Source of the DNA: Chlamydiales bacterium
GTDB taxonomy: Bacteria > Chlamydiota > Chlamydiia > Chlamydiales > SM23-39
Length of the DNA: 56,477 nucleotides
Assembly (NCBI GenBank): GCA_035480535.1
Contig: DATIHQ010000121.1
Location: 1-56,477 of the forward strand
Reading direction: 5' to 3'
In this document: in pieces, positions 3,737 to 53,334 of the stretch
How positions within the stretch are numbered: position 1 is the first letter of the stretch
How the letters are laid out: each line of letters begins with the position of its first letter
The notes under the pieces: generated by a model
What the model saw: only the letters and a program-made list of their open reading frames with translations
The model's database searches: none
Told to the model about the DNA's origin: nothing
Position numbers and translations under genes: made by a program

Positions 3737-4726
3737 CTACAGATGTTCTTCCTTGATGGTCCTTGTTAGAAGCGCTTTGACGGCTTCTCTTGGATCGGCG
3801 GCGTTGAAGATCACTCCATAGGTCGCCTCAGTGATTGGAATGGGAATATTCGCTTTAAGTCCCAATTCGCGAGCGGAAACGCAGGTGTAGATTCCCTCGA
3901 CTGCCATGCCGATTTTCTGACGTGCACCTTCGGGTGAAAACCCTTCGGCAATGAGTTTTCCAAATCGATAATTGCGGCTGTGGCGCGACATGCAAGTGAC
4001 GCAGAGATCTCCCATCCCCGAAAGGCCGTTCAACGTCTCTGGTTTACACTCTTTCACAACGCACAATTTTTTGATTTCATGAAGCCCACGCGTCATCAAA
4101 GCCGCCTTCGCATTATCGCCGTAACCCAACCCATCGGAAATGCCGCATGCAATCGCAATGATGTTTTTCATCGCGCCCCCAAAGCAAACTCCGCGGATAT
4201 CGGCATTGGGATAAATCCGAAAGGTCGGCGTAGTGAAAAGCTCGTGGATCAATTTCATGATCCCGTTTTCATAAGCGGAGCAAACGACCGAAGTAGGTAA
4301 ATTGAGAACCACCTCTTCCGCATGGCTCGGGCCGCTGAGGCACCCCACCAAGGGACTTTCCTTCACTCCGATGATTTCAGAGACCACTTCAGGTAAAAGC
4401 AATCCAGTCCCTTGCTCGATTCCCTTGGAAGTCAAAATCACCGGAACATCGATGGTCCCAATTTCTTGAAATACAGGGCGAATCCCCGAAGAAGTAACGC
4501 TTTCCACTAAGAGATCCGCTCCCTGCGCTGCCTCAGCAAGTACATTTGTAAATCGAATCGAGCGGGGAATGCTGAAATTGGCCAGTTTCGGATGGGTCCG
4601 CTTTTCTTCCAGATGTTTTGCGAGCTCCGGATCGCGCGTCCATGCAATCACTTCATGTCCATTGCCAGCGAGAATTGAAGCCAGAGCTACGCCCCACGTT
4701 CCCGATCCCAAATATCCAATTTTCAT
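3737..4726 (-). CDS. gpsA: NAD(P)H-dependent glycerol-3-phosphate dehydrogenase
   Basis: GSGTWG, SKGIE, SGPSHAEEV, GGAMKNIIAIACG, GLSGMGDLCVTC, SRNYRFG. Confidence 0.96.
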   Translation of the reverse strand: MKIGYLGSGTWGVALASILAGNGHEVIAWTRDPELAKHLEEKRTHPKLANFSIPRSIRFTNVLAEAAQGADLLVESVTSSGIRPVFQEIGTIDVPVILTSKGIEQGTGLLLPEVVSEIIGVKESPLVGCLSGPSHAEEVVLNLPTSVVCSAYENGIMKLIHELFTTPTFRIYPNADIRGVCFGGAMKNIIAIACGISDGLGYGDNAKAALMTRGLHEIKKLCVVKECKPETLNGLSGMGDLCVTCMSRHSRNYRFGKLIAEGFSPEGARQKIGMAVEGIYTCVSARELGLKANIPIPITEATYGVIFNAADPREAVKALLTRTIKEEHL

Positions 4727-6495
4727 ACTGCAAGTGCCTTTTGTACTGCTTCTAAACTCTCTTTATTTTTCAGCGGCGCATAGCAAGTTTCTCTAGAGGC
4801 GCAAATCGCTTCCACCCGCTCCGCATAGGGAAAGGCATCGAAAATAAACTGCTCTCCCTTCCAAATCGAACGCATTTGAGCGCCGATCTGCATCCTCTTT
4901 TGCACCCAATGGATCGGCAATGCAACATTTGCCATCTTTTCAAAAAAAGAAAGGCGAATCGCAAGCTGTCCTGTATTTGCCAAGCGATATTCCCCTAACT
5001 GCTGCGGATCCACTTCTGTATATTCCACCACTTCGATTTTGCCCCGCCGCTCCGCGAGAACTCCCATTGAGTTTTCTTTCCTTTCAATGCATTTGATCAC
5101 AATATCTGCCTCTTTTTCTCGAGCAAAGGCGATAAGCACTGGATCAAAAGGATGTGCCAGTGGGTTATCGACCGGAACCACCGTCACCAAATCGACCCCC
5201 TTCTCCGCAAATCGCTTTACAAGTCCCGATTGGACAAACGAGCGAAAAACACTCCCATTTCCATTGGGCCCCTGCCCCACTTCGCGCCTTTTTTCATCCA
5301 AAAGAGGACTCATCTCCTGCTGAAAGAAGTGAAGATCGAGTCCAAAGAATTGGTGCCGTTCAAAAAAAGAGACCGTCTCTTCGTGATTCAATGGCGATGT
5401 CATCACTGCAATCGGCAAATCCTTCCTTGGAACCTTCTCACATATCCATTGAAAAAGAGCTTTCCCTTGCACACGAAAAAGTCCTTTTGGATAAGAAATT
5501 CCCAGACGAGTTCCCTGTCCGCCCGCTAAAATAATGGCCCCTACATTTCCAATTTCTCTTTTTTCTATCTCTTCAGCCCTCGCACACTTCTTCAAAGGTC
5601 TTCTTGGGAAAATCTGCTCCATCACAACATCCACCGACACTCCAGAAAGATCCCTTCCTTTCCCGATCAAAGGAGTATGAACCAATTGGGGATTGGGAGA
5701 AGGAACTCCCTGCTTTAAAATCCCATGATCTGGATCGGCCCATAAAGAGATGAGATGAATAGGAAAACTCTCATCGAGATAATAAACCATCGATAAAATA
5801 CCCGAATCGGGAAGAATCAGAAATTGGCATCGATTCTTAATGATCGAAAGAAGTTCAAAAAGAGTTGTCTTTCCTCTTAGATCGATTCCGCTAGAAAACT
5901 GCGGCTCATCTCCAAAGCCAAATAAAATCACCTTCACACCCGCTATTTTTTCCAATCGATCGAATAGCTCTTTCCATCTTTCAAGCGGCCAATTGCGCCA
6001 AAGCCCATAATTTGTCTCTGCAGCCACCTGTACACCAATACAAGTCCCCGGCGGGATGGCAAATTTCTTCCAAAGATCCTCATGTTTCGGATCCCACTTC
6101 AGCTTAGGAACCACCCTACCCCTTTGCCACCTCACCCAATCGGTAGGGCTCGGGTTTTCTACTATGAGATCGAATGCTCCGGAATCGATTCCCAGCAAAT
6201 GTAAAGCGCGCTTTACATTGCATTTTTCGCCTCGTTTCCAATTGGGAGCGGCAATCTTTTTTACCCCTTCCAACATCGAAAAACCTTCCTGTAAATTCTC
6301 CCGAATCAAAAAGGTAACTTCGGCATCTGGAATCGTTTCACGGATTCGCTGCACCATCGCATATAATCCAAGCGCAATGTCTCCCAAACCTCGGTTCCAA
6401 CCAAGTAAAATTCTTCGCCCTCCCTTCTTAGCCGTTCGCTTTAACATCCAGTCAAATGGATTGGGCAAAAACAACCGCGCAAAGGTCCTAAACAC
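4723..6495 (-). CDS. Fusion of GT9 (heptosyltransferase-like) glycosyltransferase and UAP1/AGX-type UDP-N-acetylhexosamine pyrophosphorylase
   Basis: N-half: RGLGDIAL, RNWPLERW, DLRGKTTLFEL, PDSG (GT9). C-half: LAGGQGTRLG..PKG, GPNGNG, VDNPL, EQFIFDAF, YAPLKN (UDPGP/UAP family). Single 590-aa uninterrupted ORF. Confidence 0.8.
   Translation of the reverse strand: MFRTFARLFLPNPFDWMLKRTAKKGGRRILLGWNRGLGDIALGLYAMVQRIRETIPDAEVTFLIRENLQEGFSMLEGVKKIAAPNWKRGEKCNVKRALHLLGIDSGAFDLIVENPSPTDWVRWQRGRVVPKLKWDPKHEDLWKKFAIPPGTCIGVQVAAETNYGLWRNWPLERWKELFDRLEKIAGVKVILFGFGDEPQFSSGIDLRGKTTLFELLSIIKNRCQFLILPDSGILSMVYYLDESFPIHLISLWADPDHGILKQGVPSPNPQLVHTPLIGKGRDLSGVSVDVVMEQIFPRRPLKKCARAEEIEKREIGNVGAIILAGGQGTRLGISYPKGLFRVQGKALFQWICEKVPRKDLPIAVMTSPLNHEETVSFFERHQFFGLDLHFFQQEMSPLLDEKRREVGQGPNGNGSVFRSFVQSGLVKRFAEKGVDLVTVVPVDNPLAHPFDPVLIAFAREKEADIVIKCIERKENSMGVLAERRGKIEVVEYTEVDPQQLGEYRLANTGQLAIRLSFFEKMANVALPIHWVQKRMQIGAQMRSIWKGEQFIFDAFPYAERVEAICASRETCYAPLKNKESLEAVQKALAV
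6196..6237. repeat. Palindromic repeat copy 1 (intragenic, in frame)
   Basis: CAAATGTAAAGCGCGCTTTACATTGC at 6196-6221 is identical to 29274-29299; CGCCTCGTTT at 6228-6237 is shared with copy 3. Confidence 0.8.
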
Positions 6496-12434: not shown

Positions 12435-13310
12435 CTAGCAAGAAATTCCGAGCGATTCGCCGAAGTTGGCGCGGGTTTCAAACCCGTTTTTGGTATTTTC
12501 AATGAGATCGGCATCGAATTGCACTCTGTTTTTTTCAAAGAGAAGAACAATGCAAGAGGCGCCAAATTCGAAATATCCTTTTTCTTCCCCTTTTTGCACA
12601 GCGCGATCGGGAGTGTACGTCTGATGAATGCTTCCAACTGACGTCGCTCCGATTTCTATGTAGAGAATCGTTCCATATTCCTCGCTATCGATCTCCGTAA
12701 TCATCCGCTTGTTTTCCCAAAAGATCGAAATTCTCTTCTGCAGCGCAATGGGATTGACCGAATAAAGAAGTCCATTGATAAGATTCGCCTCGCTGGGAAT
12801 GCCATCGCAAGGAAAATGGAAGCGGTGATAATCGCTAGGACAAAGGCGAGCAATTGCCATCGATCCTTCCGCGTAGCGATTCGCAAGCGCCGAATTTTGC
12901 AGAAACTCTTTCAGGGAAAATGGCTGCCCCTTAATCGAGAAACGATCGAATTGGGGATAGATTAGATAACGCCCATCGGCGGGCATTGCGAGGCGGTTCT
13001 TTACGATGGGACGACATTCAGACTTTAGCTTGCGGATGAAGAAATCATTGAATGATTTGAAATTGGATTCTAGAAATTCACTCTCATCAATTCCATACGT
13101 TTCAATAAAGGGTCTGATCTCTTTTGCGCTCTTTTCTTGTCTTTGCAGGTAGCCATACAATTGAGACGCGTAGGGAAATCGGGCAATGAGAGGAAGCATA
13201 ATTCTAGAAAAAAGAGAGCCCCCGTAAAGAAAAGAAAGAGCCTGATGGCCAAAGATCTTCTCCGTACATCTTTGGCCCCCTCTCCGATCTATGTAGATCA
13301 CTTCATTCAT
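12435..13310 (-). CDS. psd: Phosphatidylserine decarboxylase proenzyme
   Basis: SFNDFFIRKLK, PADGR, RLCPSDYHRFHFP, SVNP, EIGATSVGSI, KGEEKGYFEFGASCIV. Confidence 0.93.
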   Translation of the reverse strand: MNEVIYIDRRGGQRCTEKIFGHQALSFLYGGSLFSRIMLPLIARFPYASQLYGYLQRQEKSAKEIRPFIETYGIDESEFLESNFKSFNDFFIRKLKSECRPIVKNRLAMPADGRYLIYPQFDRFSIKGQPFSLKEFLQNSALANRYAEGSMAIARLCPSDYHRFHFPCDGIPSEANLINGLLYSVNPIALQKRISIFWENKRMITEIDSEEYGTILYIEIGATSVGSIHQTYTPDRAVQKGEEKGYFEFGASCIVLLFEKNRVQFDADLIENTKNGFETRANFGESLGISC

Positions 13311-13842
13311 AAATTTTTTCTATTCCTTTACATTCTGTGCGGAGCAAGGAATAAATGCAAAGGTCGAGGAATCTTCCTCTATGAAAAAAAGAGGATCGGG
13401 CAATCCCTTCAAACTGAAATCCAGCCTTTTTGGCCAAATGTAAAGCGGCTTTACAATAGTCTGGAACAGAGAATTGCAGCCTCTCAACTTTCTGTGTAGC
13501 AAAGAGATAACTGCAAAATAAGGGAAGCGCCGCAGCCATGAGTCCCTGCCCGCGATCCTCTCTTTGAAAGATGTAACAGCGCAAATCAAGGCAATCGAAA
13601 AGCTTCTGTTTTTCATACCAAAGAGCTCCCACCAAACGCCCTTCCGGCAAAATAATCAATAGCGTTCCTTTTTCCTCTCCCCAAAAACCAGTTTCATGGA
13701 AATCCTTACGAAATTGATGTTCTGATAAAAGATTGCTGGGAAGATATTCCCCCTTGTGGCGAATGGAATCGAGAACTTGATAGAGTTCAATTAAATCGCC
13801 CTCTTTGACGGTCCGCAGATGAAAGCGTTCATTTTCGATCAT
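13303..13842 (-). CDS. GNAT N-acetyltransferase (RimJ/RimL family)
   Basis: RGQGLM acetyl-CoA motif, KAGFQFEGIAR, 179 aa. Confidence 0.85.
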   Translation of the reverse strand: MIENERFHLRTVKEGDLIELYQVLDSIRHKGEYLPSNLLSEHQFRKDFHETGFWGEEKGTLLIILPEGRLVGALWYEKQKLFDCLDLRCYIFQREDRGQGLMAAALPLFCSYLFATQKVERLQFSVPDYCKAALHLAKKAGFQFEGIARSSFFHRGRFLDLCIYSLLRTECKGIEKIYE

Positions 13843-13932
13843 AAGTACAGAATCATAACACCACCCACTTTATTATCAAATTAAACCAAAATTTATTTGT
13901 ATAATTCAAAATTTTACATTAAAATTTATACC

Positions 13933-13961
13933 TTGTAAGAAATGCCATTCCCTATTAAAAT
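13933..13961 (+). promoter_or_regulatory. Putative sigma66/sigma70 promoter of secA
   Basis: TTGTAA-17 bp-TAAAAT, 24 bp upstream of the secA ATG in an AT-rich spacer. Confidence 0.6.
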
Positions 13962-13985
13962 TTTGTCAAAGTTGATAGGGTCTCT

Positions 13986-16901
13986 ATGTTTGGTCTATTG
14001 AAATCACTTTTTGGAACGCATCAGTCCCGTTTGCTAAAGAAATATTGGAAACTCGTCCCCCAAGTCAATGCTTGGGAAGAGAAATTTCAAAAATTTTCTG
14101 ATGAAGAACTCCGTCATAAGACGATTGAATTCAAAGAAAGATTAGCAAAAGGGGAGCCTCTGGAATCTCTCATTCCGGAAGCTTTTGGAGCGGTAAAAAA
14201 CGTTTGCCGCAGGCTTTGCGGCACGGACGTGCATGTCTCTGGATATGACCAAAAATGGGACATGATTCCCTATGATGTCCAAATTTTGGGCGCAATTGCG
14301 ATGTTCCAAGGCTCGATTGCCGAGATGCAAACGGGGGAGGGAAAAACGCTGACCGCCTCTATGCCGCTCTATCTTCACGCAGTCACGGGCAAACCTGTCC
14401 ACCTCGTCACGGTCAATGACTATCTCGCCAAGCGCGACTGCGAATGGATTGGCTCCATTTTCCGCCGCCTCGGCCTCACCGTCACCTACCTCACAAATGA
14501 TGTGCCTCCTCACAAGCGCAAAGAGACCTACGCCGCCGATATCGTCTATGGGACGGCCTCTGAATTTGGCTTTGATTATCTCCGCGACAATTCAATGGCG
14601 ATGCACAAAAATGAACAGGTGCAGCGAGGCCATTACTTTGCGATGGTCGATGAAATCGACTCGATCCTCATCGACGAAGCGCGCACGCCGCTCATCATTT
14701 CAGGCCCCGTTCCTGAAAGCCGCCAAATGTACGACGAATTAAAAGAGGGCGTGGCTCACATTGTCCGGATCCAGCGCGATTCGTGCAATCGCCTGGCCAC
14801 CGAAGCGCGCCGCACGCTCGATTCTCTCGGTCTTTTCGAAGAGGAAGCGGCTCCTCGCAAACTGACCAAAGAGGAAGAAGAAAAGAAAAACGAAGCCTTT
14901 AAACATCTTTGGCTCTCCAGCAAAGGAACGCCGCGCAATAAGATCATCAAACGGGTGAAAGAAAATCCCGATATGCGAGCGGAAATCGACAAGTGGGAAA
15001 CCTATTTTTACGGCGAGCAGAATAAAGAAGAGAAATTCGATACGCTCGCTGCCCTCTACATGATTGTCGATGAGCGAAATAATGAGTTTGAGCTCACCGA
15101 TAAGGGAATTCGCGCTTGGAGCGAATTCAAAGAGGGCGTTGGCGCCGATGATTTTGTGATGTTTGACCTCGGCCATGAATATGCCACCATCGATCAAAAT
15201 CCAGCCCTCTCTGATCCAGAGAAGATGCAAGCCAAAATTTCTCTGCGCGAGCAAGATTCAAAGAGAAAAGAGAGAGCCCACAACCTGCGCCAGATGCTTC
15301 GCGCCCATCTTCTCATGGAAAAAGACATCGACTACATCGTTCAAGAGAATAAGATCATCATCATCGATGAAAATACGGGACGTCCGCAGCCAGGGCGTCG
15401 CTTCTCCGATGGCCTCCACCAAGCGATCGAGGCAAAAGAAGATGTCGCAATCCAAGGGGAAACGCAAACATACGCCACCATCACGCTGCAAAACTATTTC
15501 CGCATGTACGACAAGCTCTCCGGCATGACCGGTACAGCGATGACGGAAGCGAATGAATTCAAAGAGATCTATAAACTCGAGGTCCTTGAAATTCCCACTC
15601 ACCGCGATTGCCAAAGGGAAGATTTCGACGATGAGATCTACATGACAGAGAGGGAAAAATACAACGCCATCTTAAAAGAGATCAAAAATCTCCATGAAAA
15701 AGGGCGCCCCATCCTCATCGGCACAGATTCTGTCGAAACTTCAGAAAAACTCTCCCGCATTCTCAAGCAAAACAAACTCGAGCACACAATTCTCAATGCG
15801 AAAAACCACGCGAAAGAAGCCGAAATCATCGCCGATGCAGGGAAAAAAGGAGCCATCACTCTCGCCACTAATATGGCGGGGCGTGGAACAGACATTAAAC
15901 TCAAAGAAGGCGTTCTCGAAGTAGGCGGACTCCACGTCATTGCCACCACGCGCCACCAATCGCGCCGCATCGACCGCCAGCTGCGAGGCCGCTCAGGCCG
16001 CCTCGGCGATCCCGGTTCTTCCAAATTCTTTGTCTCTTTCGAAGATTCGCTCATGCGCCTTTTCTCTTCCCCCCGCATGACCGCACTTCTCCAACGTTTC
16101 CGCCCCCCCGAAGGGGAGCCCATCTCTGCGAAAGTGCTCAATAAATCGATTGAAACAGCCCAAAAACGGGTAGAGCAGCGCAATTACACCATCCGCAAAC
16201 ACACGCTTGAATATGACGATGTGATGAATAAGCAGCGCAAAGAAGTCTATGCATTCCGCAACGATCTTCTCTTTGCTGAGAACGCGATCCAAATCGCCGA
16301 AGAGCTCCTCGATGCCGTCGCGCACCAGATGGCCGCCCCCTTCCTCGCCAACCGCAAAGGAGAAAAAGGTTGGGATCCCACAGCCTTCCGCAACACACTC
16401 CTCACTCACTTCCCAGTCACCTTCGAAGAAAATGATCTCGAAAATGACTATCTCACTACGCAAGACATCGAGAAGAAACTCAAAGAAAAGATCCTCACTA
16501 CATTCCAACAAAAGCTCTTTTTTCAAAGACAGCTTCTCTCCTCCTTCCGCCCCGATCTCAACGACGCGGAAAAAGCGCAAAATGTCCTCCAAGAAGTCGT
16601 GCGCAACCTCATGGTCCGCGAAATCGACAAACTCTGGCAAGAGCACCTTCTCCACATCGATCATCTCCGCTCTGACGTCCACATGCGCACCGTAGGGCAA
16701 AAAGATCCTCTCCTCGAGTTTAAACACGAATCGTTCACTCTCTTCGACGCCTTCTCTCAAAACTTACGCCTTGAAATCACTCGAGACCTCTTCCGCTTTG
16801 AGATGATGCCCCAATCGCCGCAGCAGAAACTGCAGCAAACCCTCTCCCAACTGCAGCGCAGCCCCAAGCGAACACCCAAAAAAATTGGTGAACTCACTTG
16901 A
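13986..16901 (+). CDS. secA: Preprotein translocase ATPase SecA
   Basis: EMQTGEGKTL, TVNDYLAKRD, DEIDSILIDEARTPLIISG, GRRFSDGLHQAIEAKE, TNMAGRGTDI, QLRGRSGRLGDPG. Confidence 0.98.
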   Translation: MFGLLKSLFGTHQSRLLKKYWKLVPQVNAWEEKFQKFSDEELRHKTIEFKERLAKGEPLESLIPEAFGAVKNVCRRLCGTDVHVSGYDQKWDMIPYDVQILGAIAMFQGSIAEMQTGEGKTLTASMPLYLHAVTGKPVHLVTVNDYLAKRDCEWIGSIFRRLGLTVTYLTNDVPPHKRKETYAADIVYGTASEFGFDYLRDNSMAMHKNEQVQRGHYFAMVDEIDSILIDEARTPLIISGPVPESRQMYDELKEGVAHIVRIQRDSCNRLATEARRTLDSLGLFEEEAAPRKLTKEEEEKKNEAFKHLWLSSKGTPRNKIIKRVKENPDMRAEIDKWETYFYGEQNKEEKFDTLAALYMIVDERNNEFELTDKGIRAWSEFKEGVGADDFVMFDLGHEYATIDQNPALSDPEKMQAKISLREQDSKRKERAHNLRQMLRAHLLMEKDIDYIVQENKIIIIDENTGRPQPGRRFSDGLHQAIEAKEDVAIQGETQTYATITLQNYFRMYDKLSGMTGTAMTEANEFKEIYKLEVLEIPTHRDCQREDFDDEIYMTEREKYNAILKEIKNLHEKGRPILIGTDSVETSEKLSRILKQNKLEHTILNAKNHAKEAEIIADAGKKGAITLATNMAGRGTDIKLKEGVLEVGGLHVIATTRHQSRRIDRQLRGRSGRLGDPGSSKFFVSFEDSLMRLFSSPRMTALLQRFRPPEGEPISAKVLNKSIETAQKRVEQRNYTIRKHTLEYDDVMNKQRKEVYAFRNDLLFAENAIQIAEELLDAVAHQMAAPFLANRKGEKGWDPTAFRNTLLTHFPVTFEENDLENDYLTTQDIEKKLKEKILTTFQQKLFFQRQLLSSFRPDLNDAEKAQNVLQEVVRNLMVREIDKLWQEHLLHIDHLRSDVHMRTVGQKDPLLEFKHESFTLFDAFSQNLRLEITRDLFRFEMMPQSPQQKLQQTLSQLQRSPKRTPKKIGELT

Positions 16902-26732: not shown

Positions 26733-27367
26733 GACCTGCGCCCTCCTTCCCAATAGGTGATCATGGGTTCAGGAGAGGGAAGGATAAAAGCAAAGCGGAC
26801 GGGATCTTTCTTCTCTTTCCAAACTAAAAGGCGGATGACAGAAGGAGTTTCAAGGCGCGCAATGGGCCAGTTTGAGCGCCACTCTAAAGTGGAGTTGATC
26901 GTCCGTTTTTTCGCCCCTTTTTCTTCGGTTTTCTGCGCGAGGAATTCAAACTCATAATTGGAGACATTCGATAGAAGAATTTCCTTTCTCCAGGAGCGAT
27001 CTTTATCTATGGGCCACGTAGCTAAAACCAATTGCTTTTTTTCATCGAGATAAATCCGTCCCAACACGGTTCCACTGAAAATGGGATCTGGGTCGATTCC
27101 ATTATCAAAAGTGGCCACGAGGCTCGCATTTTTTTCTTCCGGGAATAGCTGGGTATAAAGGGGCGCTTGAAAAGAGGCCCTATCAATGTTGGAAAAGATC
27201 GATTGCAAGCGCATTTGCAAATATTGGCGAGAAGAAATTTCTACGCGGGCTGTTTCCAGTCTTTTTTCAATTTTTGCACTCTCGACGAAGAAAGAGAAAA
27301 GAAAGGTCAATAAAACTGCAGTGAGACTTAAGGCAATCAATATTTCAAGAAGAACAAAATTTCTTAT
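26729..27367 (-). CDS. Pseudopilin (CT567/GspJ-like); start codon non-canonical or lost
   Basis: RNFVLLEILIALSLTAVLL prepilin motif; FDNGIDPDP and G.IYLD segments; no ATG near the motif, ATA at 27367 overlaps the OPT stop. Confidence 0.7.
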   Translation of the reverse strand: MRNFVLLEILIALSLTAVLLTFLFSFFVESAKIEKRLETARVEISSRQYLQMRLQSIFSNIDRASFQAPLYTQLFPEEKNASLVATFDNGIDPDPIFSGTVLGRIYLDEKKQLVLATWPIDKDRSWRKEILLSNVSNYEFEFLAQKTEEKGAKKRTINSTLEWRSNWPIARLETPSVIRLLVWKEKKDPVRFAFILPSPEPMITYWEGGRRS

Positions 27368-29217
27368 TCTTTTTGTTTTCTGATGGAGAAATAGCCGAGT
27401 CCAAGTGCGAGGAGAAGATAGGTCCCGAAGCTGAACCACTGGGACAATTTGCCCGGTGCATCGGCAGGAATCGCGCCCGCAAGGGTGAGGAATGCAATGG
27501 CAATGCCTACACATGCGTCGCCCCCGATAAATCCAGAAGCGAGAAGAACGCCTCGCTCTTGGGCGAGTTCCTGATCCGTATGGCGATTGACATAAGCTCT
27601 CACAAGACCGCCCACCATACTAGCAGCGCTAAGAGATAGTGGCAAATAAACACCTAAAGCAAAGGGTAAAACAGGGATTCCCAAAATCGCCATGATGATC
27701 CCTATCATCACCCCAACCCCGACTAAGGCATAGGGAAGATTGCCGCTAATGACCCCGTTGACCACCATCGACATCAAGGTCGCCTGCGGCGCTGGCATCG
27801 CCTTAGAGCCAATCCCATAGGCTTGATTGAGTAAATAAACAGTATACCCCAGTGCCAAGGCGGGGATAAGGATCCCAATGATCTCAGCAATTTGCTGCGA
27901 GCGGGGGGTTGCCCCCAGGATATAGCCTGTTTTCAGATCTTGGGCCGTTGTGCCGGCTAGGCAAATCGCGCAGCAAGCAACACATCCCATCGACATAGCG
28001 GAAATCAAGTAAATTCTTTCCGTCCAGTTCAATAGAACAAAGACCAAACAAGTCACTAAAAGCACCGTGATCGTCATTCCTGAAGTAGGGTTTGAAGAGG
28101 AGCCGACTAATCCGACAGTCAATGAGGTGACGGCGACAAAGAAAAAGCTCAAAATGACCAACAACACGATCGTCAACAGATTCATTGGAAGGGTAGGGAA
28201 GAGCCATAAGAAAAGGACGATTGCTAACGACCCAAGAAGGAGCCACGCCAGGGAGATATCTCTTTCTGTTCGAGGCAAATGAGCTCTTGCCGCAAATCCG
28301 CCAAACAACTCTTTAAAACTCATGTGGATTGTTCGATATAAGAGGGGGATAATCTTAAACAAACTTAAGATCCCTCCCACCGCCAAAGTTCCTGCACCAA
28401 TGTATCTCACATAATGATTCCAAATATCATCTGCAGACATCGCTCCTACGGGAGTCGTCGATGGATAAACCGCTTCGCTTCCCAATCCAAAGGTAGAAAT
28501 TAACGGAATAATCACCCACCAAGCGAGAAGGCTGCCGGAAAACATCAATGCGGTGATCTTTGGACCGATGATATACCCAACGCCTAAAAGAGCTGGCGTC
28601 GCATCGAGGCTGAACTCTGTTTTTTTAAAGAACCCAAACGTCCAATTGACTGTTTCTGACCAAAGATAAATGCCGTTGGAGCAAATCTTGTAAACCCCTG
28701 CCGCCAAAAAACCCCAGGAAGCCATAATGGCCGATTTTCGGCTCTTCTGCCCAGATTTTAAGATTTCGGCGCAGGCGGTTCCTTCAGGAAAGGGCAATTT
28801 TTTATGTTCTTCGACAATGATATAGCGCCGCATGGGGATCATCAGCAAAATCCCCAGAAGACCTCCCATGCAGGAAAGGATGAAAATTCGCCCGATTGAA
28901 GGAGTCTCTCCCAACAGAATCAGAGCGGGGATTGTAAAAATGACCCCAGCTGCCAATCCTTCCCCCACCGTCGCAATTGTTTGGACGATGTTATTTTCAA
29001 GAATGGTCACATCCCGGAACATCACTCTTAAAATGGCCATCGACATAATCGCTGCAGGAATAGAGGCGGAAATAGTGGTTCCAATCTTTAAAGCCAGGTA
29101 TGCATTTGCTACAGCGAAGAAAAACCCGAAGATCATTCCAAGGATTATCGCCCGCGGCGTAAATTCCCGCATCACGGTGCCTGCCGAAACATGGGGATGG
29201 AAGGTTTCATGGGTCAT
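27364..29217 (-). CDS. OPT-family oligopeptide / metal-chelate transporter
   Basis: REFTPRAIILG, YLALKIG.TISASIPAA, ENNIVQT, LPFPEGTACAE, QDLKTG, PAPQATLM, LLASGFIGG. Confidence 0.93.
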   Translation of the reverse strand: MTHETFHPHVSAGTVMREFTPRAIILGMIFGFFFAVANAYLALKIGTTISASIPAAIMSMAILRVMFRDVTILENNIVQTIATVGEGLAAGVIFTIPALILLGETPSIGRIFILSCMGGLLGILLMIPMRRYIIVEEHKKLPFPEGTACAEILKSGQKSRKSAIMASWGFLAAGVYKICSNGIYLWSETVNWTFGFFKKTEFSLDATPALLGVGYIIGPKITALMFSGSLLAWWVIIPLISTFGLGSEAVYPSTTPVGAMSADDIWNHYVRYIGAGTLAVGGILSLFKIIPLLYRTIHMSFKELFGGFAARAHLPRTERDISLAWLLLGSLAIVLFLWLFPTLPMNLLTIVLLVILSFFFVAVTSLTVGLVGSSSNPTSGMTITVLLVTCLVFVLLNWTERIYLISAMSMGCVACCAICLAGTTAQDLKTGYILGATPRSQQIAEIIGILIPALALGYTVYLLNQAYGIGSKAMPAPQATLMSMVVNGVISGNLPYALVGVGVMIGIIMAILGIPVLPFALGVYLPLSLSAASMVGGLVRAYVNRHTDQELAQERGVLLASGFIGGDACVGIAIAFLTLAGAIPADAPGKLSQWFSFGTYLLLALGLGYFSIRKQKE

Positions 29218-29273
29218 GCAAATCTCCTGATAATCTCCCTATGCCTTTTCCAGAAATATTAGGGAAGGAGAAT

Positions 29274-29333
29274 CAAATGTAAAGCGCGCTTTACATTGCC
29301 TTTGGGGCCCCCGAAAATCGCCTTATTTTTTGG
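29274..29333. repeat. Palindromic repeat copy 2 (contains histidine kinase stop codon)
   Basis: CAAATGTAAAGCGCGCTTTACATTG-CCTTT-GGGGCCCCCGAAAA-T-CGCCT-TA-TTTTTTGG; matches copy 3 in reverse orientation. Confidence 0.88.
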
Positions 29334-30798
29334 CATTTTGAGGTAGGGCAATAGTGAAGGCACTTCCCTTATTTAATTGGGAGACAACGGCAATGCTGCC
29401 CTTATGTTTCTCAACGATGGTTTTTACAATCGAAAGGCCAAGGCCAGCCCCGCCCGATTTTCGGGAGCGCGCCCTATCCACTGTATAAAACCGATCGAAA
29501 ATACGGAGGAGATCCGACTCAGAAATTCCAATTCCTCGATCGGAAATATTGAAAAGAATTTGATCCCCTGACCTGCGGATGGATAGTTCGATATGGGCAG
29601 GATGATGAGAATACTTCACCCCATTTTCTAAAAGATTCATAATCGCCAGATCGATGAGATCTGCGTCTGCAATGATAGGAGCTCGATGGAGCTCGCAGTT
29701 TAAAGAAATCTCCACTTCAGGATGCGCCGTAAGAAGAAGGTGTTTGCAATTCTCTACAATGGGAATCAGATCGACCGCGCGAAAATTCTGCTCTGAAAGA
29801 TTTTCGATATCAGACAATGTGAGAAGGCTTTTGACTAATTTTTCTAATCTTCCGCACGTTTTTACAATTTTTTCTGTGATGTCATGCATCATTTCAGGAG
29901 TCATGTCAGGCAAATCTTGCAAGGTCTCCGCAAAACCTCGAATGATCGTAATAGGGGTTCTGAGTTCATGAGACGCATTGGCAATGAAATCCTTTCCCAT
30001 CTCCAATACTTTATAATCGGAGGTTTTATCCTGAAGGACAAGAATCGCGCCGCTTTGATGAGCCAGAGGGGCTGAAATGAGATCTAAATAAACCCGTTCC
30101 CCTAATGTCCATGTTTGAATGATCGACTCAGAAGTCTGCAGGGCTTGCAGAACAATTTCATGACATTTTTTCGAAAGATCAGAATCGCGCATTTTAATTT
30201 GATCGAGGGGTACATTCATCACCACATCATGAGCTACGCCCAGCATTTGGCAGGCAATTTGATTGACATAGGTCACCTTCGCGCTCGTATCTAACGCGAT
30301 AATCCCTTCTCCTAGTGAATCGAGAATTTCCTCACTTTCTTTTCTTTGCCTTTTGAGATTTTCGATTTGCTTCTTGATTCGATCGGTCAAAGAATTTAGG
30401 GTCAATCCCAATTTGCTGAATTCATCCCCGCTAGCTCCTTCTTTTAAATCAACTCGCGGCAGTTGTCCTTCTTCGTAGGGAAGAATCGCATCGAAGATCT
30501 GTTGGATGGGCTGGGTCAATCGATGGATAACCAACCAGGTCATCAATGAATACAACAACAAAATTGCCGTCCCTAGAAAAAGAAATCCCATCTCAAAATC
30601 AAGGGTTAATTCTTTTTGGAGAATTTTGATGAGATCTGAACCATCAGGAATCTTTTCTAAAAGCTCCTTTGTCCGATTTTCAAGTGAGCTATGTATGATG
30701 TTCGCCACAGTCCTTTCAACAAAAGGAAAGAGCACGGCGAGAAATACAAGGAAAAGAACGATATCGCTAAGGAGGATCTTTTTTCTAAAGCTGAGCAT
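29323..30798 (-). CDS. Sensor histidine kinase, PhoR-like (2 TM, HAMP, PAS, HisKA, HATPase)
   Basis: FIANASHELRTPITIIRGFAETL, NLLENGVKY, DRGIGI, IFDRFYTVD, GAGLGLSIV; start trimmed to MLSFRKK, overlapping the pepP stop by 14 nt. Confidence 0.92.
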   Translation of the reverse strand: MLSFRKKILLSDIVLFLVFLAVLFPFVERTVANIIHSSLENRTKELLEKIPDGSDLIKILQKELTLDFEMGFLFLGTAILLLYSLMTWLVIHRLTQPIQQIFDAILPYEEGQLPRVDLKEGASGDEFSKLGLTLNSLTDRIKKQIENLKRQRKESEEILDSLGEGIIALDTSAKVTYVNQIACQMLGVAHDVVMNVPLDQIKMRDSDLSKKCHEIVLQALQTSESIIQTWTLGERVYLDLISAPLAHQSGAILVLQDKTSDYKVLEMGKDFIANASHELRTPITIIRGFAETLQDLPDMTPEMMHDITEKIVKTCGRLEKLVKSLLTLSDIENLSEQNFRAVDLIPIVENCKHLLLTAHPEVEISLNCELHRAPIIADADLIDLAIMNLLENGVKYSHHPAHIELSIRRSGDQILFNISDRGIGISESDLLRIFDRFYTVDRARSRKSGGAGLGLSIVKTIVEKHKGSIAVVSQLNKGSAFTIALPQNAKK

Positions 30799-31831
30799 AA
30801 GTGGGAGACAGAATGTCACGATCAAAGAAATTTTCGCAACCATTCTTTGTTACAAGGATCATATCTTCAAGTCTTACCCCCCCTAATCCCGGTTGATATA
30901 GCCCTGGTTCAATCGTAAATACCATTCCAGGCTCTAAAATAAGATCTTGATCTTCCCCATTCTTTCTGAGCAGTGGATATTCATGCGTTTCTAACCCAAT
31001 CCCATGACCCAAACTATGAATAAAAAGAGACTCAAGGCCCATTTTTTCAAATTCTTTCCTGACAACCCGATCCAATTCACCCAAAACAACACCCGGCCTG
31101 ATAGAGTCAATCGCCGCATCATGCGCCCGTTTCACACATTCTTCAAAAAGCTCCAATTTCGCATCTTTTTCTCCAAAAAAATAGGTACGGGTCATATCGC
31201 CTCGATAGCGATTTACAATCGCTCCTACATCGACCAAAATAACCTGCCCTTTTTCCAACCTCGCTTGCCCTGCCCGATAATGAGGAAATGCGCTGTTTTT
31301 CCCGAAAGCGATGATCGGATCAAATGACAGACCAGAAGCTCCATTTTTTCGACAATACATCTCAAATTCAAGGGCCAATTCTATTTCGCTTACTCCTTCT
31401 CGAAGCAAAGAGAGTATTTTTTGATACCCCTTCCAGGTAAGCTGCGCCGCCCTTCGCAATTCTTCGATCTCTTTTGCCTCTTTGATCATCCTAATTTTTT
31501 TTAGCGGCCTTGAAATGGGAATCCACTCTTTATCCAGCTTCTGCAAATTCAAAAACCCTTCATAGGTCACAAATGCGCTGTCAAAACCGGCCCGTTTTCC
31601 TTTTTCCTTTGTAAACTCATCGAATAAGAAAACAGGACAAGGCGCCTCTTTTTTCGCCTCTTCATAATAACGCCCATCGACAAATAATTTGCCTCCTTCA
31701 GGTGTCGCCCAAAATCGCCCTCTCGAAACAGAAAGGCCCGTCAAATACAAAAGATCTGCCGGGTTTTCCAATAAACAGCCATCGACGCCTTTCAGCGAAC
31801 CGATGAACTTTTGAATCCGTCTTTCATCCAT
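30785..31831 (-). CDS. pepP: Xaa-Pro aminopeptidase (M24)
   Basis: VDGRY, DVGA...YRGDMTRT, HSLGHGIGLETHE, TIEPGLY, GVRLED. Confidence 0.92.
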   Translation of the reverse strand: MDERRIQKFIGSLKGVDGCLLENPADLLYLTGLSVSRGRFWATPEGGKLFVDGRYYEEAKKEAPCPVFLFDEFTKEKGKRAGFDSAFVTYEGFLNLQKLDKEWIPISRPLKKIRMIKEAKEIEELRRAAQLTWKGYQKILSLLREGVSEIELALEFEMYCRKNGASGLSFDPIIAFGKNSAFPHYRAGQARLEKGQVILVDVGAIVNRYRGDMTRTYFFGEKDAKLELFEECVKRAHDAAIDSIRPGVVLGELDRVVRKEFEKMGLESLFIHSLGHGIGLETHEYPLLRKNGEDQDLILEPGMVFTIEPGLYQPGLGGVRLEDMILVTKNGCENFFDRDILSPTYAQL

Positions 31832-50714: not shown

Positions 50715-52330
50715 TGGTCATTCCCCAAATCCTGCAAATCTTGGGCAAATATCTTTTCTACCTCGCCATTGCCCTTTGCCTTCCCCTATGTCTCGCCTTT
50801 TACTACGAATTTCTCGCCAACCCGAATCTCCATCCCCAACCCCACAGCACCTTTGCCTTTTTTATCGCCTTCCTCATTTCTCTGATCGCAGCCCTTATTT
50901 TCCGCTCTTTTGGACGCAAGAACATTGGACAGCTCTATCGCCGCGAAGGCATTCTCCTCGTCGTCCTCATTTGGTTTGTCACTTCGCTCATTAGCGCCCT
51001 TCCTTTCTACTTTAGCCGCACCCTCACCAATCCTCTCGATGCCTACTTTGAGGCGATGTCGGGCCTCACCACCACAGGCGCCACTCTCATCTGCCCCAAA
51101 TCTTACAATCCGAATACAGGAGAAGAGGTCCCCGTCTATATCACAAATCCCCATGTCCCAGACAAAACCTACACCTACTGGGGCACGGTAGCACCCATCC
51201 GCGACCCGCAAACAAACCTGATCCAATATTCTGGAATTGAAGCTGTCGGGAAAGCGCTCCTCTTTTGGCGCAGCCTCCTCCAGTGGATCGGCGGTATGGG
51301 AATCGTCGTGATTTTCCTCACCGTTCTCCCAGCCCTCGGCGTTGGCGGCAAATTCCTCTACCAAATGGAAATGACCGGTCCCGTCAAAGATGAAATCACC
51401 CCTCGCGTCCGTCAAACTGCCTCGCAGCTCTGGAAACTCTATCTCTTCCTCACCCTTCTAGAAATTTCCCTTCTCGTCGCAACCAATCGCGAAATGCCCT
51501 TCTTCGATGCGCTCTGCATTTCCCTCTCTAACATCTCCACCGGCGGCTTTTCCATCCGCAACGACAGCATTGCCAGTTATCAAAGCTCCGCCACCGAATG
51601 GATCGTCCTCACCTTTATGATCCTCGGCAGCATTAACTTTTCTCTCTACTTCCACGCCATTCGCTTTAAATTCTTCCGCACCTACGTCCCCGACTTCTTC
51701 CTCTTCCTCGCCACCGCCGCTCTTGGCTGCCTAGCCGTCTCCCTTTTTCTCATCGGAGATAACTACACCATTGGCGACGCCTTTCGAGAAGGAAGCTTCC
51801 AAGCCATTTCAGCGCAAACCACCACCGGCTTTATCACCGCTAATTACGACCGTTGGCCCTTTGCCTCCCAAATGTTCATGCTCCTCCTCATGTTTATCGG
51901 CGGCATGTCAGGTTCAACCGCTGGCGGTATCAAGACATCCCGATTCTACATCCTCTACAAAATTGTCCTTCACCGCCTCGAGTCGATCTACCGCCCTGAC
52001 AGCATCCGTAGACTCCGCATCGGCTCCGCAGAAATCGATGATAAAAACGCCCTCACCGTCCTCGCCTTCTTCTGCATCGTCGCCTTCTTCACCATTCTCG
52101 GCACCGCCTCCCTCGTCCTCGACGGCATCGATCCCGAATCATCCCTCGGCCTCATCGCCTGTTTTATGAACAATGTCGGCATGGCCTTCCGCGCCGCCGG
52201 TCCCACAGGCTCCTTCGCCTTTCTTTCCCCCTTCGCCAAAATCCTCGCCATCTTTTGGATGCTCCTCGGCCGTCTCGAGTTCTACGTCGTCCTCCTCCTC
52301 TTCCTCCCCTCCTTTTGGAAAAACAAATGA
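50714..52330 (+). CDS. trkH: Trk system potassium uptake protein TrkH
   Basis: FEAMSGLTTTG, WIGGMG, STGGF, TTTGF, FIGGMSGSTAGGIK, MLLGRLE. Confidence 0.94.
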   Translation: MVIPQILQILGKYLFYLAIALCLPLCLAFYYEFLANPNLHPQPHSTFAFFIAFLISLIAALIFRSFGRKNIGQLYRREGILLVVLIWFVTSLISALPFYFSRTLTNPLDAYFEAMSGLTTTGATLICPKSYNPNTGEEVPVYITNPHVPDKTYTYWGTVAPIRDPQTNLIQYSGIEAVGKALLFWRSLLQWIGGMGIVVIFLTVLPALGVGGKFLYQMEMTGPVKDEITPRVRQTASQLWKLYLFLTLLEISLLVATNREMPFFDALCISLSNISTGGFSIRNDSIASYQSSATEWIVLTFMILGSINFSLYFHAIRFKFFRTYVPDFFLFLATAALGCLAVSLFLIGDNYTIGDAFREGSFQAISAQTTTGFITANYDRWPFASQMFMLLLMFIGGMSGSTAGGIKTSRFYILYKIVLHRLESIYRPDSIRRLRIGSAEIDDKNALTVLAFFCIVAFFTILGTASLVLDGIDPESSLGLIACFMNNVGMAFRAAGPTGSFAFLSPFAKILAIFWMLLGRLEFYVVLLLFLPSFWKNK

Positions 52331-53121
52331 GTGAGCCAGTTGCAAAACCCCAATTTCAGCCCAAATCCGCGCTTTTGCCGCCGGATTCGGTCCCGTCGCA
52401 AATCGCCTATGGCCTTTCGGATATGTCAATTTGCGACGAGCGCGAACCGACGCCAAAATCATCGAATTTGTGCAAGAAAGCGGGTTTTGCAACTGGCTCT
52501 GTCAACTGGCACCAGCAATGGGCCCTCTTCGCCCAAAACTTTCATCACGGCAAAGCCCACATCTCCCTCGCCCCCTATAATTCTCCCCACACCCTCCGCC
52601 TCCTTCCCGGCCCAGGTTTCGGCGACCTCTCTCATCCCACCACACAACTCATGCTCTCCCTCATGCATCCCCACATCGCCAACCAACCCATCCTCGATAT
52701 CGGCACTGGCAGCGGCATTCTCACCCTCGCCGCCCTCCTCCTCGGCGCCCGCTCCGCCATCGGCATCGACATCGACCCCTCCGCCCTCACCCACGCCCGC
52801 GCCAACGCCCGCCTCAACAATCTTACTCCCCACTTCTCCCTCACCCTCCCGAAAACCCTCCCCCCGCAAAACATCCTCCTCCTCAACATGATCTTCCCCG
52901 AGCAGAAAATAGTGAATCCTCCCACCCTCAATCCCCACGCCAAACTCTGGATCGTCTCAGGCATCCTCGCCGAGCAGAAAAAAGCCTACCTACAACAAAC
53001 AGAACAATGGGGATGGACCCCTCTTTCAGAGCACACAAAAGACGGTTGGATGGGATGGATTTTCACATGTAAATTACCCCAAAAAACGAGGCGTTTTTCG
53101 GGGGCCCCTACCCAAATGTAA
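52327..53121 (+). CDS. prmA: Ribosomal protein L11 methyltransferase-like
   Basis: PGPGFGDLSHPTT, LDIGTGSGIL, GIDID, SGIL; ATGA overlap with the trkH stop. Confidence 0.8.
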   Translation: MSEPVAKPQFQPKSALLPPDSVPSQIAYGLSDMSICDEREPTPKSSNLCKKAGFATGSVNWHQQWALFAQNFHHGKAHISLAPYNSPHTLRLLPGPGFGDLSHPTTQLMLSLMHPHIANQPILDIGTGSGILTLAALLLGARSAIGIDIDPSALTHARANARLNNLTPHFSLTLPKTLPPQNILLLNMIFPEQKIVNPPTLNPHAKLWIVSGILAEQKKAYLQQTEQWGWTPLSEHTKDGWMGWIFTCKLPQKTRRFSGAPTQM

Positions 53122-53138
53122 AGCGCGCTTTACATTTG
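53079..53138. repeat. Palindromic repeat copy 3 (supplies prmA C-terminus and stop)
   Basis: CCAAAAAA-CG-AGGCG-T-TTTTCGGGGGCCCC-TACC-CAAATGTAAAGCGCGCTTTACATTTG; 26-bp perfect palindrome at 53113-53138. Confidence 0.88.
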
Positions 53139-53140
53139 AA

Positions 53141-53189
53141 AAATCTGAAATCTGAATTATGAAATCTGAAAACGTCGGGGCTCCGCCCC
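53141..53189. repeat. Heptamer tandem repeat plus GC hairpin
   Basis: AAATCTG AAATCTG AATTATG AAATCTG (53141-53168); GGGG-CTCCG-CCCC (53177-53189). Confidence 0.6.
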
Positions 53190-53334
53190 CGCTGCCCCCA
53201 GTGCCCTCAGATCTCTTAAAAACAGGACATACCTGATCACCCTATATATCTTCCTGGCGGCAACCTTATCAAATAACAGGCAGGACCCATTTCCAGCTGT
53301 TGAGATAAATCGGGAAAGTTCTCTAACTTTTAAA

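Follow-up and report, generated by a model that had tools for sequence, protein, structure and literature searches.

A perfect palindrome in chlamydial genes and gene ends is probably a maintained DNA site rather than a mobile repeat

We analysed a 56,477-nt stretch of DNA from a Chlamydiales bacterium (contig DATIHQ010000121.1, hereafter the window), which is the whole of contig C121 in a 121-contig, 1.76-Mb assembly (GCA_035480535.1; 48% GC, 91% complete). Three exact copies of a palindromic 22-mer, AATGTAAAGCGCGCTTTACATT, lie in it at positions 6198, 29276 and 53115, where 100 shuffles gave none. A sequence-only reading of the window had already picked out these three copies, which are confirmed and not due to chance, and had proposed that they belong to a family of mobile elements of about 60 bp, similar to repetitive extragenic palindromic (REP) sequences or Rickettsia palindromic elements (RPEs), fused to the 3' ends of genes. 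It had overlooked a fourth family site at 13439-13455. A separate hairpin module, B', stands beside copies 2 and 3. Our analysis refutes the mobile reading for the palindrome and keeps it for the B' hairpin alone; the palindrome itself, we conclude with good confidence, acts in cis and is maintained, as opposed to being mobile DNA. The features concerned are as follows.

6198..6219, no strand: palindrome copy 1, inside a GT9-like/UDPGP fusion gene (4723-6495, minus strand)
13439..13455, no strand: fourth family site, TGTAAAGCGGCTTTACA, with the ancestral 8-1-8 spacing; it falls within the minus-strand GNAT acetyltransferase gene 13303-13842
27364..29217, minus strand: OPT-family transporter gene, downstream of copy 2
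29276..29297, no strand: palindrome copy 2, the 8-2-8 variant AATGTAAAGCGCGCTTTACATT, between the kinase stop and the OPT start
29298..29303, no strand: 6-nt spacer GCCTTT, from copy 2 to the hairpin module
29304..29333, plus strand: B' hairpin module at copy 2, degenerate, GGGGCCCCCGAAAATCGCCTTATTTTTTGG
29323..30843, minus strand: PAS-HisKA-HATPase_c histidine kinase gene, with its stop within the B' module
52255..53121, plus strand: prmA, in which PrmA homology stops at about residues 267-273
53067..53073, no strand: left half-site remnant ATGTAAA, where prmA of a sister genus (G002) ends
53077..53108, minus strand: B' hairpin module at copy 3 (plus-strand sequence CCCCAAAAAACGAGGCGTTTTTCGGGGGCCCC), translated within the PrmA tail
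53115..53136, no strand: palindrome copy 3, holding the prmA stop codon (53119-53121)

Copy 1 codes for NVKRALH, and orthologues align there gap-free with DVKKTLL, SVQKTLA and others. Its open reading frame (ORF) of 590 aa (4723-6495) joins a GT9-like N-terminal half to a UDPGP-type nucleotidyltransferase. The fourth site codes for CKAALH where the orthologue has YSKAAIRV. Copies 2 and 3 do share a flank of about 40 nt, 6 nt off the palindrome, as had been noticed: CC(CC)AAAAAA-NN-AGGCG-W-TTTTCGGGGGCCCC, whose 32-40 nt or so can also be written CCCCAAAAA-CG-AGG-CG-TTTTTCGGGGGCCCC. This flank holds the B' module. At copy 3, B' forms a 12-bp stem (-15.4 kcal/mol), and the last ~15 residues of PrmA (LPQKTRRFSGAPTQM) are coded by the module plus the palindrome; the G002 prmA terminates with ...FTCKCKAALH* on an intact palindrome. 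At copy 2 the hairpin reaches only -3.8 kcal/mol, and the complement of the module codes for the last codons and the TAA stop of the kinase, whose Pfam HATPase_c match runs to aa 502 of 506. Both stop codons had been reported at the repeats, and they are there, that of the kinase at 29325-29323 in the flank of copy 2 and that of prmA inside the palindrome of copy 3. The claim that all three copies point the same way is not supported. Copy 1 has no flank, its CGAGGCG likeness being conserved coding sequence for WKRGE, and because a perfect palindrome without the flank has no orientation, copy 1 cannot be oriented; across the genome, flank orientation is mixed.

With the family defined as TGTAAAG-N(2-5)-CTTTACA, the genome holds 22 sites, including 12 copies of the 20-mer core and 11 of the exact 22-mer. 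Thirteen have the 8-2-8 spacing (12 of them with the centre GCGCGC) and nine the 8-1-8 spacing. Three copies in 56 kb had been expected to imply many genome-wide; the total is only these 22, the window being drawn from a stretch of chromosome rich in sites. Mismatches follow an all-or-none pattern: against 22 perfect sites there are no sites with one mismatch, those with two or more are as frequent as in reversed and everted controls, and the only near-sites in the genome are junctions with the B' flank module. The suggested match to a TyrR box holds for this lineage alone, as the N6 spacing occurs only in its 8-2-8 variant, whereas the phylum-wide form is TGTAAA-N5-TTTACA. Long ORFs contain 13 of the 22 sites, in one or the other open frame, and these sites code for NVKRALH, CKARFT, CKAALH or NVK(R/P)LY.

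Was the palindrome inserted into these genes, or were the genes rewritten to contain it? A concatenated query of ten host-protein segments was searched against 12 relatives and the matches were aligned. At nine of the ten in-gene sites the palindrome-coded residues align gap-free to the closest orthologue; at the tenth (the gene at C6:47437), the orthologue in genome G001 is one residue shorter and has its own palindrome about three codons away. In GmhA the palindrome codes for ANVKRLYT, which aligns without gaps with AKAKGMKT in phosphoheptose isomerases of solved structure. The site often stands where the residues of the orthologue are already similar (ECKAALHW and VCKAFVYW, YCKAALHL and YSKAAIRV, TNVKPLYI and TIVKQLYI). 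These gap-free alignments exclude an RPE-like insertion for the palindrome. Furthermore, the 6-nt spacers beside the 100%-identical palindrome all differ in the seven composites with B' (GCCTTT, TGGGTA, GCATTT, ACAGTT, TGAATT, GCTTTA and GCTTTT). The identity of the palindromes is therefore maintained, and not the result of recent copying.

The exact 20-mer core was found in none of 40 relatives. With a relaxed motif, genera of the same family have 0-39 sites and other families of the order 0-2 (reversed control, 0-1). Across 36 metagenome-assembled genomes (MAGs), the GT9-like gene codes for the peptide VKLAL(H/Q) as GTA AAG CTN GCT TTA CAT in about 16 of 20 cases; adjacent synonymous positions vary, and palindrome-free orthologues have other residues. 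Different genera have sites in common at lplA and recD, at the 3' end of prmA and upstream of thrS, and also downstream of an rpoD-like gene, an Rsm22-like methyltransferase gene and two other genes; in genera without a site, decayed versions of it can be seen at the corresponding positions. Four other families have one or two sites each, again orthologous, and two sites are common to at least four families. One of these lies beside a parA-like gene (see below); the other falls within the orthologue of C85:7394-9004, 120-200 nt from its 5' end, and our genome has a site there as well. Conserved promoter positions across species had been named in advance as an observation that would speak against a mobile repeat, and the palindrome copies do occupy conserved positions, across genera and families and gap-free in genes.

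At the level of the phylum, 128 of the 301 Chlamydiota genomes scanned contain the general form TGTAAAGC-N(1-2)-GCTTTACA, and the reversed control had no match in any of them. Most site-bearing lineages hold one to three sites, and a genus of complete 1.0-1.3-Mb genomes, most likely Chlamydia, typically has two, 12.4 kb apart. Expansions reach 92 and 29 sites in one family, 36, 46 and 14 in another (where congeners have 0), 19 in a third and up to 49 in the family of our genome, and these arose independently. Arm variants with a compensatory change are absent, and the sequence is invariant, including the bases beside the centre. Literature searches on the motif and on chlamydial palindromic repeats returned nothing relevant and no description of the motif.

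The sites are also unevenly distributed along the chromosome. In our genome, 15 of the 22 fall in two syntenic blocks. Genome G003, which also has 22, carries none on a 629-kb contig that makes up 37% of the genome and seven on a 93-kb contig syntenic with the window. All 19 sites on a 1.92-Mb contig of the relative G321 lie at 1.134-1.843 Mb (0.71 Mb), for which we calculate a chance of about 2e-7 with random points. Eight of them are to the left and 11 to the right of about 1.5-1.55 Mb, where GC skew turns from mainly negative to positive; the opposite turn, at 0.1-0.4 Mb, fits an opposite terminus. Spacing is regular as well: the 12 site loci within 115 kb on G017:C6 are more even than random (coefficient of variation 0.36, P=0.0004), with a minimum interval of 5.8 kb (P=0.0001). 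The arrays on this contig and on G322:C6, G323:C33 and G321:C2 are all more even than random and have about one site per 6-30 kb, and intervals below about 5 kb almost never occur in them, tandem doublets apart.

In the four genomes examined for GC skew, the distance between sites and the skew minimum runs from a few kb to about 25 kb. G033 has negative skew for 36 kb and then positive skew for 84 kb, with sites at 40.5 and 44.8 kb, beside thrS-parA-CT583. The skew of G028 switches at about 12 kb, with sites on either side (6.2 and 19.7 kb), and on our own contig C79 the cumulative minimum, at about 18 kb, falls between sites at 11.8 and 21.3 kb. In G045, a genome of about 1.1 Mb, the switch is at about 452 kb and the sites are at 463 and 475.5 kb. 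The sites of G050, of similar size, are 10.7 and 23.2 kb from coordinate 1. The site-rich contigs (the window, G003:C20 and G003:C14) show no skew switch along their length and so would lie along a replichore arm. As an origin marker, dnaA was considered and rejected, both dnaA genes being on site-free contigs, and GC skew was used instead.

One alternative is that the palindrome works at the level of RNA or of a single-stranded hairpin, as a terminator, a stability or processing hairpin, or the target of an HUH-type enzyme. For the 8-2-8 form the fold is a 9-bp stem closed by a 4-nt loop, and for the 8-1-8 form, by inspection, it would be about 8 bp with a 3-nt loop, so that both centre variants would leave a similar stem-loop. 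Many intergenic sites lie 0-20 nt past a stop codon or between convergent genes, sometimes with both stops, and the palindrome is often paired with the B' hairpin, whose stem shows compensatory changes. However, it is the sequence of the palindrome that is invariant and not just its pairing. Copy 2 folds no better than shuffles, terminator prediction made no call and found no U-tract at the window copies, and Rfam, searched over the window, matched one tRNA only and none of the sites. A RAYT/TnpA(Y1) gene flanked by the repeats, which had been suggested as a check and would supply a Y1/HUH enzyme, is missing: PF01797 had 0 matches in our genome (91% complete), while controls matched. Hairpins inside housekeeping genes would truncate transcripts, and clustering around the origin would go unexplained. 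We therefore consider an RNA or single-strand role very unlikely.

A transcription-factor operator of a global regulon, or a roadblock or insulator, with a repressor or a sigma-region-4-like protein on the TTTACA arms, would suit a perfect palindrome of operator size. Three of our sites are in divergent promoter regions (C68:23309, C79:11797 and C116:11200), and one falls within or close to the parA-CT583 operon, where an autoregulatory operator would be expected. The arms are inverted -35-like hexamers (TTTACA), and upstream of OPT, at 29256-29283 on the minus strand, there is a sigma-70-like promoter match that uses an arm as its -35, with TAATAT 16 nt downstream, about 39 nt before the OPT start. 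Against this, 13 of 22 sites are deep in genes and seven of ten intergenic sites are at 3' ends, and neither restriction to one domain nor even spacing is a property of a regulon. Functionally the host genes have nothing in common apart from a loose overrepresentation of glycosyltransferase and lipopolysaccharide (LPS) genes; the glycan/LPS genes among them are GmhA, two GT9-like and one GT10-like. We think an operator quite unlikely. The operator reading offered earlier as a lesser alternative thus came closer to the evidence in invoking a protein-binding site, and less so in placing it at promoters, where most sites are not.

What, then, is the flank? B' is a hairpin of the form GGGG-Y-CCCCGAA...TTYGGGG with an 11-12-bp stem and a 3-nt loop. 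Our genome has at least 24 copies in 17 stem variants, nearly all of which keep their pairing through double changes (counted per variant with ViennaRNA), and B' is shared as a module with other short-repeat families of this repeat-rich genome. Eight copies adjoin a palindrome, seven at exactly 6 nt and the nifS copy at 12 nt, always with the GGGG end towards the palindrome and with mixed orientation relative to genes. At least 16 others are without a palindrome, beside other repeats, a tRNA or nifS. B' is followed by a direct duplication of the sequence upstream of it, 7-42 nt overall: 14-16 nt, from the palindrome centre, in three cases and 7-8 nt in the prmA-type cases. At C16:7130-7235, a 39-nt B' insert is flanked by a 32-nt direct duplication of a nifS-like 3' end, in which the stop codon and one half of a palindrome of the 8-1-8 type are included. 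At C72:23935-24070, B' follows a tRNA gene, with a 34-42-nt duplication of the tRNA 3' end and trailer and without a palindrome. In a comparison with miniature inverted-repeat transposable elements (MITEs), B' has occupied and empty orthologous sites, no longer element with the same ends was seen, and the duplications (7-8, 14-16, 32 and 34-42 nt) have no fixed length. This variability fits no standard transposase. The composite was also considered as attL/attR of a mini-element, given that the B' end AATACA mimics the right arm TTTACA, and this fails on the 32-nt nifS and 42-nt tRNA duplications.

The G002 genome has the palindrome plus B' architecture at orthologous loci too. Its recD (L042, on C102) contains a 57-nt in-frame composite of half-site, B, 6 nt and full palindrome, which adds 19 residues to RecD where our recD has a bare palindrome. 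In G017 a half-site abuts a full site, as if B' had been lost. At orthologous loci, for example in G000 and G002, the duplicated half-site carries the centre variant of its own lineage, an indication that B' was inserted into a site that was already there. B' is thus an independent repeat module, repeatedly inserted next to or into the palindrome and remodelling gene ends, and it accounts for the ~15-residue PrmA tail and the kinase stop in the window. The claimed fusion to gene 3' ends accordingly holds for B' (prmA tail, kinase stop, recD insert) and not for the palindrome.

Could palindrome and flank nevertheless transpose together as one ~60-bp REP/RPE-like element that fuses to gene ends? 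The eight composites of the same architecture, the recD composite, the 7-42-nt target duplications, the footprint-like half-site in G017 and the abundance of other modular short repeats in the genome would all be expected of such an element. Yet the palindrome stands alone, without B', at 14 of our 22 sites and across the phylum, and B' lacks the palindrome at least 16 times; the internal spacer is unconserved, orthologous composites carry lineage-specific centres, and there is no candidate transposase. The observations in favour therefore describe insertion of B' at a pre-existing site and not a 60-bp unit, which we regard as highly improbable.

Two further observations concern the surroundings of these composites. 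The OPT and kinase genes are in tandem in the window and convergent, about 3 kb apart, in four sister genera, and the palindrome plus B' composite marks the exact spot of the altered junction (27364-30843). Logan contigs of four independent soil metagenomes (matches came from DNA soil metagenomes only) contain the copy-2 locus together with its unique spacer, and depth is the same to either side. A misassembly of the junction was considered and is unlikely, given that in four samples a pair of Logan contigs, equal in depth, overlaps across this copy-specific spacer. Immediately after copy 3 (53137-53200) there is a member of another short-repeat family (…GAAATCTGAAATCTGAATTATGAAATCTGAAAACGTCGGGGC…), with about 27 copies genome-wide; further families in the genome are built on CGAGCCCGAGCCCG, TAATGCGAATATCAGCGC(A/G)GAGG and GGGGTGCGGGGGCGAAGCCCC.

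The site is not confined to chromosomes. The exact 21-mer AATGTAAAGCNGCTTTACATT occurs at 22 loci (L144-L165) on about 20 tailed-phage contigs in IMG/VR, where by our own estimate far fewer than one would be expected. These contigs have 32-47% GC and one or two sites each, often extended to CCAATGTAAAGCNGCTTTACATTGG. Many share portal, large-terminase (TerL) and major-head genes, and the site is often within about 170 nt of a capsid gene or between the terminase and portal genes. The phage-contig proteins have no homologues in our genome, which thus has no related prophage. Phage carriage is one of several findings that a selfish or drive-type sequence would explain, spread by uptake, by packaging in phages or gene transfer agents, or by biased repair or conversion at the hairpin, in the manner of DNA uptake signals and with no benefit to the cell. 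Copy number runs from 0 to 46 in one genus and to 92 elsewhere, sites are written into genes at a cost in amino acids, and lineages have 'dialects' (8-1-8 or 8-2-8). In contrast, one to three copies persist at orthologous, origin-proximal places throughout the phylum, including reduced 1.1-Mb genomes, and arrays are evenly spaced within a single chromosomal domain. There is no halo of sites with one or two mismatches, unlike in decaying drive sequences, and tens of copies are too few to bias the uptake of random fragments. Selfish spread is in our judgement unlikely.

Conservation, the absence of indels, the all-or-none mismatch spectrum, clustering and proximity to the origin are more in keeping with a conserved protein-recognition site on DNA that has a chromosome-level, origin-domain role and forms an ancient low-copy set, with arrays in some lineages, and this is the interpretation we favour, if only with moderate confidence. 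We propose that the palindrome would be recognised as double-stranded DNA by a conserved, probably dimeric chlamydial protein. The ancestral form would be TGTAAAGC-N-GCTTTACA, usually flanked by AA..TT. Most chlamydiae keep one to three copies of it, near the origin in the genomes examined. Several lineages, that of our genome among them, have multiplied it into an origin-centred array of 20-90 sites, one per ~6-30 kb over hundreds of kb. New sites would be written into local DNA, coding sequence included, giving peptides such as (N/Y)VK(R/Q/P/L)(A)L(H/Y) or CKA(A/R)(L/F)(H/T), and in our genome 13 of 22 have shifted to the 8-2-8 spacing. The function may be organisation or segregation of the origin domain, as for parS/ParB, matS/MatP and Noc sites, and would be carried out in this family without ParB, which is absent there.

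Which protein might read the site? One of the two cross-family sites occupies the short gap that separates a parA-like ATPase gene from a PF03677 gene (G028, G033 and G036; three families), and in the family of our genome it lies upstream of thrS-parA-CT583. The gene after parA belongs to PF03677 (UPF0137, 'CT583 family / pGP6-D') with E 1e-77. Our own contig C79 has, at 13801-15299, a chromosomal parA-like gene followed by a CT583/pGP6-D-family gene, as on chlamydial plasmids, where the pair is also a partition-like module next to dnaB; the plasmids of Simkania (pSn) and C. trachomatis have the module and lack the palindrome motif. Pgp6 is essential for plasmid maintenance, with unknown function, and ParB is absent from the plasmid (PMC7846284). 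CT583 of C. trachomatis has been tested only as a possible secreted protein, with mixed results (PMC12671076). Our CT583-like protein has no sequence match in the PDB. AlphaFold with 53 sequences gave an all-alpha model with a predicted local distance difference test score (pLDDT) of 80, against only 38 for AF2 with the single sequence; the N-terminal 42 residues are disordered and contain an invariant KFxDLLxLRF motif. This N-terminus may resemble ParA-stimulating peptides. By gene position alone, the CT583/pGP6-D-family protein is a candidate binder, although we know of no demonstration that a protein of this family binds DNA.

ParB_N (PF02195) is absent from our genome and from 26 of 26 genomes of its family, and present in nine of 16 other families of the order. 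The canonical parS TGTTTCACGTGAAACA has no match within two mismatches in our genome or in the origin regions fetched. It is possible, though we hold it to be doubtful, that TGTAAAGC-N-GCTTTACA is a centromere or origin-domain organiser of Chlamydiota, read independently of ParB by the ParA (CT582-like) and CT583/Pgp6 pair. If so, the Pgp6/CT583 family would be a new class of centromere-binding protein, evenly spaced, origin-centred arrays would have grown from the site in lineages that lost ParB or remodelled their chromosomes, and chlamydial tailed phages would carry the site to hitch-hike on the host system.

Several points weigh against the proposed origin-domain site and its reader. The binder is hypothetical. 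The CT583-like model has no PDB neighbour (best Foldseek E ~1) and no recognisable DNA-binding fold; because it lacks a structural neighbour, it gives evidence neither for nor against DNA binding. Families that keep ParB also carry sites, so the site is not simply a substitute for ParB, and in the genus of ~1.1-Mb genomes the two sites are origin-proximal and yet away from the par locus. The origins themselves are presumptive, because they are placed by a GC skew that is noisy in G321 and on our contig C79, and because dnaA is not near the sites in any genome tested. The position of seven of ten intergenic sites, directly at stop codons, would fit a role in RNA too, the range of 0 to 46 copies within one genus would also fit selfish or drive-like spread, and the presence of the same site on tailed-phage contigs is unexplained.

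Chromosome positioning and segregation are poorly understood in chlamydiae, which divide without FtsZ, and ParB is missing from whole chlamydial families. The palindrome would offer a testable handle on segregation: it could serve as bait for its binder, as a marker of the origin, and in a test of CT583/Pgp6 as a partition protein. A letter-perfect 17-bp palindrome is kept from soil MAGs to a genus of ~1.1-Mb genomes, and the cell appears to pay for DNA sites with amino-acid changes in housekeeping enzymes. More generally, short palindromes that are identical and fused to genes are not necessarily mobile DNA.

How does the chlamydial palindrome compare with known systems? Intrinsic terminators differ from it, in that most chlamydial sites are intragenic and have neither a U-tract nor a terminator call. 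DNA uptake sequences (DUS) of Neisseriaceae and uptake signal sequences (USS) of Pasteurellaceae are similar in their rewriting of codons within genes, family dialects and even spacing, but they number thousands of copies, whereas the chlamydial site numbers tens, is restricted to one domain, is palindromic, and has an ancient origin-proximal core and no mismatch halo. REP sequences and bacterial interspersed mosaic elements (BIMEs), at gene ends, and RPEs, in coding sequence, are also short palindromic repeats, and B' behaves as they do. The palindrome, in contrast, leaves gene length unchanged, keeps orthologous positions across families, is present in few copies and has no RAYT. REP sequences are extragenic, species-specific and high-copy, while 13 of 22 palindromes are intragenic and the motif is phylum-wide; RPEs add residues in frame, which here only the B' composite does (19 in G002 RecD, ~15 in PrmA).

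The systems that organise chromosomes and plasmids are closer. Like the sites of MatP (matS), Noc and SlmA, the chlamydial arrays consist of tens of mostly intragenic palindromes in one part of the chromosome, in related genera. However, matS marks the terminus and the Noc- and SlmA-binding sites (NBS and SBS) all but the terminus, whereas the chlamydial array is centred on the presumed origin, and the FtsZ-directed nucleoid occlusion of Noc and SlmA is not applicable to chlamydiae. Plasmid type I partition cassettes, including the chlamydial one (Pgp5, a ParA, and Pgp6), also pair a parA-like gene with a small conserved one, and in three chlamydial families a palindromic site stands in or beside the operon; the copies on chlamydial plasmids that we examined differ in lacking the motif. 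From parS/ParB the chlamydial site differs in being unrelated to TGTTNCACGTGAAACA and of odd length (8-1-8), in occurring in a family without ParB_N or a canonical parS, and in forming arrays evenly spaced over hundreds of kb. It resembles parS in being a short perfect palindrome, often intragenic and conserved across the phylum, with few copies near the origin, sometimes in or next to a par operon, and with 20 copies or more in some lineages.

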